Shown here piece after piece: positions 51,897 to 53,780 of a stretch of DNA of 64,000 nucleotides. A program made the position numbers and the translations under genes. The first letter of the stretch is position 1, and the number at the start of each line of letters is the position of its first letter. The notes below the pieces were generated by a model. That model was not told the origin of the DNA. It saw nothing but the letters and a program-made list of their open reading frames with translations, and searched no databases. This stretch comes from Candidatus Magasanikiibacteriota bacterium (GTDB taxonomy: Bacteria; Patescibacteriota; Patescibacteriia; Magasanikbacterales; GWA2-37-8), in NCBI GenBank assembly GCA_963840935.1, contig CAWJAS010000001.1, positions 706,790 through 770,789 on the forward strand, written 5' to 3'.

Positions 51897-51970
51897 GGGC
51901 GTATAGCTCAGCTGGTTAGAGCGTTTCGTTGACATCGAAAAGGTCTCCCGTTCAAGTCGGGATACGCCCA
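51897..51970 (+). tRNA. tRNA-Val (anticodon GAC)
   Basis: GGGCGTA / GCTC-AGCTGGTTA-GAGC / TTTCG-TTGACAT-CGAAA / TCCCG-TTCAAGT-CGGGA / TACGCCC-A. Confidence 0.85.
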
Positions 51971-51991
51971 CAAGTAAGAGTTTCACAATAA

Positions 51992-52065
51992 GGGCAATTA
52001 GCTCAGATGGTTAGAGCGCGTCACTGATAATGACGAGGTCGGAGGTTCGATTCCTCCATTGCCCA
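51992..52065 (+). tRNA. tRNA-Ile (anticodon GAT)
   Basis: GGGCAAT / GCTC-AGATGGTTA-GAGC / CGTCA-CTGATAA-TGACG / GGAGG-TTCGATT-CCTCC / ATTGCCC-A. Confidence 0.85.
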
Positions 52066-52097
52066 CATTATAAAATTACCACCTTTAAGAATAATAA

Positions 52098-52126
52098 TAA
52101 AAACACTGCCAAAATAGGCAGTGTTT
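52098..52126. terminator. Bidirectional hairpin terminator between the convergent tRNA pair and the 16S rRNA gene
   Basis: aaaa-ACACTGCC-aaaat-aGGCAGTGT-tttt. Confidence 0.55.
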
Positions 52127-52241
52127 TAAATTAACAATATAAACGTGACAAAAACCTAAATCGTTCACCCCGTTCCGAAAGAAATTAATCTTAACTCGGA
52201 ACTCGACTGAGAATCGTCTGCCTTTCGGCAGAAGTGTCTCC

Positions 52242-53780
52242 AGAAAGGAGGTGATCCATCCACAGCTTCCGCTACGGATGCCTTGTTACGACTTCACCCT
52301 AGTCATTGACCCTGCATTCATTCCGACAGAATCGAAACTTCGTGCATTGCCAACTTCCGTGGTGTGACGGGCGGTGAGTACAAGACCCGAGAACGTATTC
52401 AACGCCCCGTGGCTGATAGGCGTTTACTAGCGATTCCAACTTCATGCAGGCGAGTTGCAGCCTGCAATCCGAACTGAGACCGGTTTTGATGGGATTAGCT
52501 CCATCTCGCGATTTGGCGACCCATTGTACCGGCCATTGTATCATGTGTGTGGCCCTGGACGTAAGAGCCATGCTGATTTGACGTCGTCCACCCCTTCCTC
52601 CCAGCTCGCTGAACACAAAAATTTTATGCTCAAAGAGCTGGGCAGTCTCGTGTGTACATTTAACACACGATATGGGTTGCGCTCGTTTCCCGACTTAACG
52701 GTACACCTCACGGCACGAGCTGACGGCAACCATGCAGCACCTATCTAGCACCCTCGAAGGCTATGTCCATTTCTGGTCATATGCAGCTAGTAGTTGAGCC
52801 CAGGTAAGGTTCCTCGTTTATCATCGAATTAAACCACATGATCCACCGCTTGTGCGGGTCCCCGTCTATTCCTTTGAGTTTTAGCCTTGCGGCCGTACTC
52901 CCCAGGCGGTGCACTTAACGCGTTAGCTTTTTTGAACGACACTGACAGGGTCGATACTGCCAATATCTAGTGCACATCGTTTAGGGCGTGGACTACCAGG
53001 GTATCTAATCCTGTTTGCTCCCCACGCTTTCGTCCCTTAGTGTCAGGAGTGTACCAGTAAGCTGCCTTCGCATTTGGTGTTCCTGCGGATATCAACGCTT
53101 ATTACGACTACACCCGCAATTCCGCTTACCTCTTCCACCCTCTAGATTGGTAGTTTCAAGAGCGATCTCCATGTTGAGCATGAAGTTTTAACCCTTGACC
53201 CGCCAACCCACCTACGGACCCTTTACGCCCAGTAAATCCGGATAACGCTTGAGGTCTCTGTATTACCGCTGCTGCTGGCACAGAGTTAGCAACCTCTTAT
53301 TCCTCTCTTACCGTCACTCTGCCAAAAGGCAAATTCTTCAGAGAGAAAAGCAGTTTACAATCCGAAAACCTTCATCCTGCACGCGGCGTCGCTCCCTCAG
53401 ACTTTCGTCCATTGGGGAATATTCTCGACTGCAGCCACCCGTAGGTGTCTGGGCAGTATCTCAGTCCCAGTGAGGCAGGTCACGCTCTCACGCCTGCTAC
53501 TGATCATCGTCTTGGTGAGCTTTTACCTCACCAACTAACTAATCAGACATAGGCCCCTCTCCAAGCGTCGAAGCTTTAAATGCGAATGACTTTTGTCCCC
53601 GCATTACTATCGGGTATTAATCCGCCTTTCGGCAGGCTATCCCCGTCTTGGAGGTGGGTTACCAATGTGTTACTCACCCGTTTGCCGGTCCGTACCTCAA
53701 TATTGCTATAAAGGCCGATCCCTCGACTTGCATGCCTTAAACACGCCGCCAGCGTTCATCCTGAGCTAGGATCAAACTCT
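52242..53780 (-). rRNA. rrs: 16S ribosomal RNA (complete, about 1,540 nt, no intron-sized insertion)
   Basis: The minus-strand 5' end is AGAGTTTGATCCTAGCTCAG (rc of 53761-53780). The 3' end is ...GGATCACCTCCTTTCT, the anti-SD (rc of about 52242-52258). Internal universal blocks are present, e.g. GTGCCAGCAGCCGCGGTAATAC (rc of about 53260-53281). Confidence 0.95.

Follow-up and report, generated by a model that had tools for sequence, protein, structure and literature searches.

A 16S rRNA gene without a linked 23S gene and its inverted tRNA-Val/tRNA-Ile neighbor cassette in Candidatus Magasanikiibacteriota

In Escherichia coli, the precursor of 16S ribosomal RNA (rRNA) is bracketed by an RNase III processing stem. 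The canonical rRNA (rrn) operon consists of the 16S gene, the transfer RNA (tRNA) genes tRNA-Ile(GAT) and tRNA-Ala(TGC), and the 23S and 5S genes. In the survey of Brewer et al. (10.1101/705046), the Patescibacteria make up a cluster whose rRNA genes are all unlinked. We analyzed a stretch of 64,000 nucleotides from a Candidatus Magasanikiibacteriota bacterium (contig CAWJAS010000001.1, positions 706,790 to 770,789; the whole stretch is hereafter called the window), in which a 16S gene converges with a tRNA-Val(GAC)/tRNA-Ile(GAT) pair. The reading that we prefer, and regard as quite probable, is that a self-contained 16S unit ancestral to the clade lies beside an autonomous tRNA cassette that was recently inverted in this lineage. 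As in the unlinked rRNA genes described by Brewer et al., the 16S gene is complete, no 23S gene is found within 1500 bp (here, within 52 kb) and the condition is clade-wide. Nothing essential differs from that description, to which the window adds trmD upstream, a tRNA cassette downstream, a leader-trailer helix and a terminator of the 16S gene's own.

The three RNA genes at the center of the analysis are:
52244 to 53787, minus strand: 16S rRNA gene (Rfam RF00177, 1411.9 bits, model positions 1-1533 of 1533)
51897 to 51971, plus strand: tRNA-Val(GAC), the cassette's first gene (ARAGORN and Rfam, 66.9 bits)
51992 to 52066, plus strand: tRNA-Ile(GAT), convergent with the 16S gene (ARAGORN and Rfam, 74.8 bits)

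The 16S gene is 1544 nt long, full-length, free of insertions and the sole rRNA gene in the window, where Rfam gave zero matches to large-subunit (LSU) or 5S rRNA at gathering score; this search took in 52 kb on the downstream side of the 16S gene and 10 kb on its upstream side. With unlinked genes defined by more than 1500 bp between 16S and 23S, or by no 23S nearby, the 16S gene is unlinked within the window. This is the arrangement already known for Patescibacteria (candidate phyla radiation, CPR), and it agrees with the survey of Brewer et al. (10.1101/705046). An earlier note on this DNA had described a 16S gene not followed by 23S or 5S genes, its convergence with a tRNA-Val/tRNA-Ile pair and an unlinked rRNA operon of a kind reported for reduced genomes. 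All three statements are borne out, the first by the Rfam search, the second by ARAGORN and Rfam, and the third by the window, by 49 relatives' loci described below and by the published survey. The presence of tRNA-Ile(GAT) by the 16S 3′ end recalls the canonical rrn operon. The window differs from that operon, however, in that 23S, 5S and tRNA-Ala genes are missing nearby (neither ARAGORN nor Rfam found tRNA-Ala in the window), the partner of tRNA-Ile is tRNA-Val(GAC), and the tRNA genes have promoter-like sites of their own and lie behind a putative terminator on the opposite strand, instead of on the 16S strand between 16S and 23S. Neither cassette tRNA gene encodes CCA.

The relatives used for comparison are labelled Candidatus Magasanikbacteria/Patescibacteria, and their TrmD proteins and 16S genes are 55-80% and 83-98% identical to those of the window, respectively (their loci are numbered with L, TrmD database proteins with P). 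The order trmD-16S-tRNAs-S26-HisRS is common to them, and trmD is followed by a same-strand 16S gene in 26 TrmD-anchored loci. The contigs of the closest TrmD relative, P0002 (80% identical), all stop ~470 bp past trmD and are uninformative. A search pattern for the 16S 3′ end that ends in ...GGNNNGATCACC, rather than in ...GGNNNGGATCACC with one G extra, gave 73 further metagenome loci. The dereplicated census set comprised 66 lineages, the window included, with the following arrangements downstream of the 16S gene (orientation relative to 16S):
tRNA-Val then tRNA-Ile, both on the 16S strand: 28 lineages
tRNA-Ile then tRNA-Val, both on the 16S strand: 6 lineages
one tRNA seen before the contig end: 5 lineages
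inverted, tRNA-Ile then tRNA-Val on the opposite strand: 2 lineages (the window and L129)
no Val or Ile tRNA detected in the available downstream sequence: 25 lineages

Thus, the tRNA genes are on the 16S strand in 39 of the 41 lineages that carry them downstream of 16S. The closest relative is L001, a 732-kb JGI (Joint Genome Institute) contig whose 16S gene is 97.2-97.8% identical to that of the window. Its trmD, 16S, tRNA-Val(GAC), tRNA-Ile(GAT) and SLT-like genes are all on one strand without a 23S gene, and the order SMC-S16-KH-TrmD-16S-[tRNAs]-SLT-like-S26-HisRS-S21-pilin is kept with 65-100% protein identity to the window. The co-directional layout is also found in L005, L006, L021, L033 and L056, and partly in L015. 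Rfam found no LSU rRNA in 49 relatives' loci, and a scan run without a positive control found no 23S signature motif in the first ≤6 kb downstream of 84 16S 3′ ends. Because L001 and 38 other lineages are co-directional, still lack 23S and have the same flanking genes, the unlinked state of 16S and 23S is ancestral to the whole clade and older than the flip. The comparison with related CPR genomes that the earlier note had proposed therefore shows kept gene order, no 23S gene downstream and mostly co-directional tRNA genes. The co-directional relatives also have a terminator hairpin and a promoter between 16S and the tRNA genes, so that tRNA-Ile does not behave as a spacer tRNA in them.

Several other features of the relatives' loci were observed. 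Several of the relatives have insertions in the 16S gene at three or four recurrent sites, for example L001 (1702 nt), L033 (1842 nt) and L028 (1740 nt), and the 16S gene of L026 (7967-11537) has a group I intron at its 3′ end (RF00028, 69 bits). The co-directional order of tRNA-Ile before tRNA-Val occurs in L070, L092, L096, L109, L114 and L122; a single inversion cannot make this order, which needs duplication then loss, or two separate events.

The signals assigned to the 16S unit are:
54192 to 54200, minus strand: TTATCCACA motif, a DnaA-box sequence, upstream of the 16S promoter and conserved in the relatives' leaders
54132 to 54160, minus strand: putative 16S promoter, with -35 TTGACA (54160-54155), a 17-nt spacer and -10 TAAGCT (54137-54132)
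53893 to 53918, minus strand: leader (5′) arm of the leader-trailer helix, pairing with 52131-52156
52131 to 52156, minus strand: trailer (3′) arm of the helix, the last 26 nt of the 116-nt 16S trailer
52100 to 52127, no strand assigned: hairpin T1, with perfect 11-bp arms (52100-52110 and 52117-52127) and a 6-nt loop

An alignment of five leaders revealed a conserved promoter block, GCTAGCTCTTGACAAA...TATTCT/TAAGCT, which places a conserved promoter of the form CTCTTGACA-17-TAAGCT/TATTCT upstream of the 16S leader. The site was not listed by a simple promoter scan: 9 of its 12 hexamer positions fit and its -10 element is weak. From this conservation we infer that 54160-54132 acts as the 16S promoter. 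Downstream of it, leader and trailer form a 26-bp helix in which 91.8% of the cells are paired across 25 lineages and 14 of the 26 pairs show compensatory changes on both sides. None of 500 shuffles reached this pairing, and the paired fraction was 37-49% when the arms were slid. By RNAduplex, the whole leader against the whole trailer (-62.3) is indistinguishable from shuffles (minimum -62.1), and it is for this reason the covariation count on which the helix claim rests. Both properties expected of a pre-16S processing helix, complementarity of leader and trailer and covariation, are thus present, and the helix brackets the 16S gene as the processing stem of E. coli does. By this analogy it is predicted to be a pre-16S processing stem that would undergo processing of the RNase III type.

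Hairpin T1 begins directly after the trailer arm, 116 nt past the 16S 3′ end and 33 nt past tRNA-Ile. Its folding energy is -16.7/-16.8 kcal/mol on either strand (z ~ -6.5), and none of 200 shuffles folds as well. The stem lies between an A-tract and a T-tract; its tail reads TTTTTATTATTATT on the strand of the 16S gene and TTTTAAATT on that of the tRNA genes. With such a stem and tracts between convergent units, T1 has the sequence features of a bidirectional intrinsic terminator, and it resembles the GC-containing stems with A- and T-tracts described between convergent genes (10.1101/2022.10.23.513370). It differs from those in that the same design occurs in co-directional relatives and the U-tract on the tRNA side is short. 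In 46 of 56 dereplicated relatives the trailer arm is immediately followed by a terminator-like hairpin, nearly always with an A-tract before and a T-tract after it. Because position and build are the same in most relatives, including co-directional ones, T1 is probably an ordinary 16S terminator, with putative termination, and not a device evolved for convergence. Given its symmetrical build, it could plausibly stop the tRNA transcript too. The earlier note had placed the 16S 3′ end at about 52242 and the hairpin at 52098-52126, which is right to within 1-2 nt (52244 and 52100-52127). Its 115-bp spacer and shared bidirectional hairpin were correct insofar as the hairpin exists and is shared; the spacer is instead the 116-nt 16S trailer, and the hairpin is probably the standard 16S terminator rather than a special bidirectional device.

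The following elements precede the tRNA genes:
51820 to 51828, plus strand: TTTTCCACA motif, just upstream of the cassette promoter and within the inverted block
51837-51865 and 51865-51893, plus strand: tandem cassette promoter-like sites, TTGATT-17-TATACT (with TG) and TTGTCA-17-TATAAT

In the promoter scan the two sites scored 9/12 and 11/12, respectively. The block is homologous to that upstream of tRNA-Val in L001, L005, L056 and L006, and a TTTTCCACATTT block stands ahead of the tRNA promoter in L005, L056 and L006. The inverted segment keeps the promoter block TTTTCCACA..CTCTTGATT-17-TATACT together with the second site, TTGTCA-17-TATAAT. Because of this homology to the relatives' block ahead of tRNA-Val, the cassette promoter appears to have moved with the tRNA genes. 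Since both the 16S gene and the tRNA pair have candidate promoters of their own, with a covarying helix around 16S and a terminator hairpin between the two, the 16S gene is predicted to be transcribed on its own, as a self-contained unit of one gene, and the tRNA pair would form a second, autonomous unit in co-directional genomes as well. At the level of sequence, the hairpin after the trailer and the separate tRNA promoter argue against co-transcription of 16S with the downstream genes.

It should be noted that the DnaA-box sequence TTWTCCACA has only two sites in the 64 kb, at 54192-54200 (minus strand) and 51820-51828 (plus strand). Each closely precedes a promoter for stable RNA, with site and promoter oriented alike in the two cases, and both are conserved in relatives. 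Their number is not above chance (2 vs. 2.2 expected), and their placement is the notable part. The two sites may be a shared regulator site.

The inversion was mapped by aligning the window, in 16S-strand orientation, to L001 with blastn:
52320 to 52131: collinear with L001, 97.9% identical, 16S end and trailer
52067 to 51992: inverted relative to L001, 100% identical, tRNA-Ile
51976 to 51834: inverted relative to L001, 77% identical, tRNA-Val and its promoter
51784 to 51654: collinear with L001, 70% identical, promoter and start of the SLT-like gene
51834 to 52067 (minimal) or 51785 to 52130 (maximal), plus strand: inverted block of 234-346 bp with the promoter, tRNA-Val and tRNA-Ile
51798 to 51819, no strand assigned: left junction, T/G-rich, reading GAGTGTGTTTTATTTGTGTCTC on the 16S strand

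The trailer is thus collinear with L001 up to 52131, and tRNA-Ile is the same gene on the opposite strand relative to 16S. The second hairpin (T2), which follows tRNA-Ile in relatives, is gone in the window, where tRNA-Ile and the one hairpin that remains lie 33 nt apart, with a novel spacer between them. By eye, the low-complexity left junction resembles the right arm of T2 and its flank in L001 (GGATGTGTTTTTTTGTGTAGAG), and 51798-51819 is possibly, on this weak resemblance, a relic of that arm. We also considered whether the remaining hairpin could be an inverted T2 or a hybrid; the arms are short, palindromic and A/T-rich, and the position right after the trailer arm favors T1. Because the closest relative L001 is not inverted, the flip appears to be recent, later than the split from this relative with ~97% identical 16S.

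The second convergent case, L129, belongs to a different lineage (16S ~90% identical to the window), and its relative L094 is co-directional. Because L129 is inverted though L094 is not, the arrangement probably arises naturally. The inversion of the cassette would accordingly be an event separate from, and later than, the unlinking, rare in the clade and independent in the window and L129. In L129 (Ga0075122_10000120, 1-1260) two hairpins are kept between 16S and tRNA-Ile. Its last 673 nt of 16S are 99.9% identical to those of L094, while the trailer is only 86% and the downstream genes are 78-80% identical; the 16S of L129 is oddly more conserved than its surroundings, which may reflect recombination or a chimeric contig.

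Taken together, the 16S unit would run from the promoter at ~54160-54132 through the leader, the 16S gene and the 116-nt trailer that pairs with the leader to the terminator-like hairpin at 52100-52127. The cassette, made up of the TTTTCCACA motif, promoter, tRNA-Val(GAC) and tRNA-Ile(GAT), has the same direction as 16S in almost all relatives, and its block of 234-346 bp would have been inverted after the split from the relative with ~97% identical 16S. The flipped cassette would have lost its own terminator and would now run into the 16S terminator from the other side, where a hairpin built as A-tract, stem and T-tract could plausibly stop both polymerases.

Some observations weigh against this reading. 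The term unlinked reflects what is missing from 52 kb of downstream and 10 kb of upstream sequence. On the tRNA strand only four U follow the T1 stem before AAA, and a terminator scan called T1 on the 16S strand only. The junction sequences are short and of low complexity, so that the exact breakpoints cannot be fixed. The flip is seen in the assembled sequence; the only independent short (Logan) contigs that carry identical flanking proteins, TrmD and the SLT-like protein, break off where 16S starts or within tRNA-Val. Runs ERR12035938 and ERR15459710 contain flanking proteins identical to those of the window. A break in gene order and composition, mid-gene at ~58.3 kb, lowers trust in the assembly somewhat. 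Finally, tRNA-Val is only 73% identical to that of L001, compared to 100% for tRNA-Ile, and is too divergent for a pure inversion: the T, acceptor and anticodon stems together have ~11 base pairs swapped compensatorily. Such a pattern suggests that an allele was replaced within this small region, and at least one further event beyond the flip is needed.

The best surviving alternative builds on this divergent allele. It proposes a replacement rather than a simple flip, in which a double-strand break or homing-type event was repaired from a foreign or divergent template, bringing in the new tRNA-Val allele and reversing the cassette. We consider this unlikely. The window tRNA-Val is 82-87% identical to those of the distant L094, L015, L033, L088 and L125, the best match being L094 (87%), whose 16S gene is 86% identical. 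Three of these loci (L094, L015 and L088) carry a 229-aa open reading frame (ORF) between the 16S terminator and tRNA-Val, which is 54-61% identical among the three, has a helix-turn-helix-like N-terminus (a weak signal) and a stop that abuts or overlaps the tRNA-Val start; it co-occurs with the type of tRNA-Val allele that the window shares. In L094 and L006, an 86-aa GIY-YIG nuclease ORF (PF01541, 1e-13 and 7e-17) directly follows tRNA-Ile, at 1182-1480 past the 16S 3′ end in L094 (Ga0222658_1000042) and at 1483-1826 in L006, and ends in a duplicated 3′ half of tRNA-Ile; it has the look of a selfish element that has settled in the tRNA gene. The site also often shows partial tRNA copies and swaps of tRNA order. 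The window itself, however, has no nuclease ORF, mobile ORF or att-like duplicate and no partial tRNA copy or duplicated tRNA half, and its tRNA-Ile and promoter are native and L001-like. The 229-aa ORF is without a significant family or structure match, and tRNA stems may evolve fast in this clade, with 65-87% identity to the window tRNA-Val.

The same elements invite a broader, tentative proposal that we rate as doubtful: small selfish ORFs of the nuclease type (GIY-YIG at tRNA-Ile and the 229-aa ORF at tRNA-Val) may make the cassette a hot spot of recombination, in which repair of the breaks that they cause would result in allele replacements, partial copies, order swaps and inversions, and the window cassette, with its foreign-type tRNA-Val and lost terminator, would be an ORF-free scar. 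The locus inversions, order swaps, partial tRNA duplicates and GIY-YIG ORFs of the relatives are like those in nuclease- or integrase-linked rearrangements of tRNA genes. The window differs from such cases in that it has no mobile ORF, att-like duplicate or flanking inverted repeat (none >11 nt was found around the inverted block). The link is circumstantial; nucleases may have driven the flip.

Two candidates related to this proposal were rejected. The 229-aa ORF as a homing endonuclease lacks any significant Pfam or PDB match, and its LAGLIDADG-like LAMLYLGEG motif is a by-eye resemblance only. Gene conversion from the window's other tRNA-Val(TAC) gene does not account for the allele, as the stems are unrelated in sequence. 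Partial copies of tRNA-Ile or tRNA-Val, comprising 5′ or 3′ halves with GC-rich palindromic inserts, were found in L001 (13280-13800), L005 (9160-9330), L006 (~9140-9520) and L033 (~4040-4100). They share the unit GGTTACCCGCC.GAACGACTGA..TCGTTCAGTCGGGCGGGGAGCGCG, and L005 9163-9243 gave a weak Rfam tRNA score of 31.2 bits. These copies are either miniature-element-like or decayed duplicates.

An assembly artefact, in which the cassette is truly co-directional but assembly or polishing turned a small segment the wrong way round, is improbable. In its favor, the hairpin is a palindrome at one junction, and the break at ~58.3 kb in the same window is unexplained. Around this break, SMC matches relatives only at residues 395-1018 (window 58252 to 56381), with ~394 N-terminal residues missing, and GC content rises from ~0.40 to 0.50-0.62. 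Beyond it (58250-64000) lie a split adenosine deaminase gene (58723-59392), SfsA (61424-62161) and transfer-messenger RNA (tmRNA; 62239-62650), where relatives have ClpP-DHH-full SMC. A chimeric join in the assembly, inserted foreign DNA or a deletion could account for the break, which does not touch the 16S locus. Mis-orientation is countered by the lack of an inverted repeat >11 nt flanking the block and by junctions unlike flipped L001-type sequence, with T2 missing, the novel 33-nt spacer and the different tRNA-Val allele. Moreover, neither the promoter nor the TTTTCCACA motif is damaged, both stand where an inverted cassette would have them, and L129, an independent metagenome contig of another lineage, has the same convergent layout.

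The view of the earlier note, that an inversion with its breakpoint in the former 16S-23S spacer split 16S from 23S and stranded the spacer tRNA-Ile, draws on tRNA-Ile(GAT) being the classical spacer tRNA, on its inverted position right after 16S and on an inversion relative to relatives that blastn indeed reveals, but as the cause of unlinking it is essentially refuted by the 39 of 41 lineages that are co-directional without 23S (with S26-HisRS beyond the tRNA genes where the flank is visible), and it is further opposed by the block of at most 346 bp with collinearity resuming on both sides, the terminator and promoter between 16S and the tRNA genes in relatives, and the partner tRNA-Val(GAC) in place of tRNA-Ala(TGC).

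The genes that flank the locus are all on the minus strand. Their order is SMC (truncated), S16, KH, TrmD and 16S, then, past the cassette, SLT-like, signal peptidase S26, HisRS, S21, a T4SS-pilin-like gene and a 3746-aa ORF. The immediate neighbors are:
54224 to 54946, minus strand: trmD (PF01746 at 1.2e-53), conserved upstream neighbor of 16S across the clade
50942 to 51718, minus strand: SLT-like secreted ORF of 258 aa, 65% identical to its L001 ortholog, at which collinearity with relatives resumes

The TrmD database version P0001 (319 aa) starts at an upstream TTG (window 54221-55180). The true start is probably the ATG at 54946, giving 241 aa in accordance with the Pfam match and all relatives, and the public start was probably mis-called. 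For the SLT-like ORF, which the earlier note had called a lytic transglycosylase, neither the window protein nor its L001 ortholog has a Pfam match at E up to 10; in PDB, phmmer gave only a spurious 17-residue match and a profile search only a weak tape-measure match (E = 0.055). The positional ortholog in L005, which is 37% identical to the window protein, matches PF01464 (SLT) at E = 9.5e-10, and E103 and S104 (the Glu-Ser motif) as well as the GEIG..Q and Y..SG motifs are invariant between the two. A diverged lytic transglycosylase is thus plausible by orthology only. Window positions 34931-48322 hold the 3746-aa giant ORF adjoining a 711-aa protein with T4SS-pilin (PF18895) and Big_5 domains; both have syntenic counterparts in L001 (3572 aa and 704 aa), and together they make up a surface or attachment locus typical of CPR.

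The window is a further, well-resolved case of the unlinked rRNA organization known in CPR, and what is new locally is a cassette flipped relative to nearly all relatives. The orphan 16S gene of this clade retains a full set of predicted signals of its own, consisting of a promoter, a covarying leader-trailer helix and a terminator, and the tRNA-Val/tRNA-Ile cassette changes its orientation or order now and then while its flanks stay undisturbed. Long-amplicon methods that span 16S, the internal transcribed spacer and 23S will miss such organisms, and the conserved trmD-16S junction can help to tie 16S genes to metagenome bins. Should the association with nuclease ORFs prove true, the locus would offer a convenient natural series in which to follow the reshaping of tRNA clusters by selfish endonucleases in reduced genomes.

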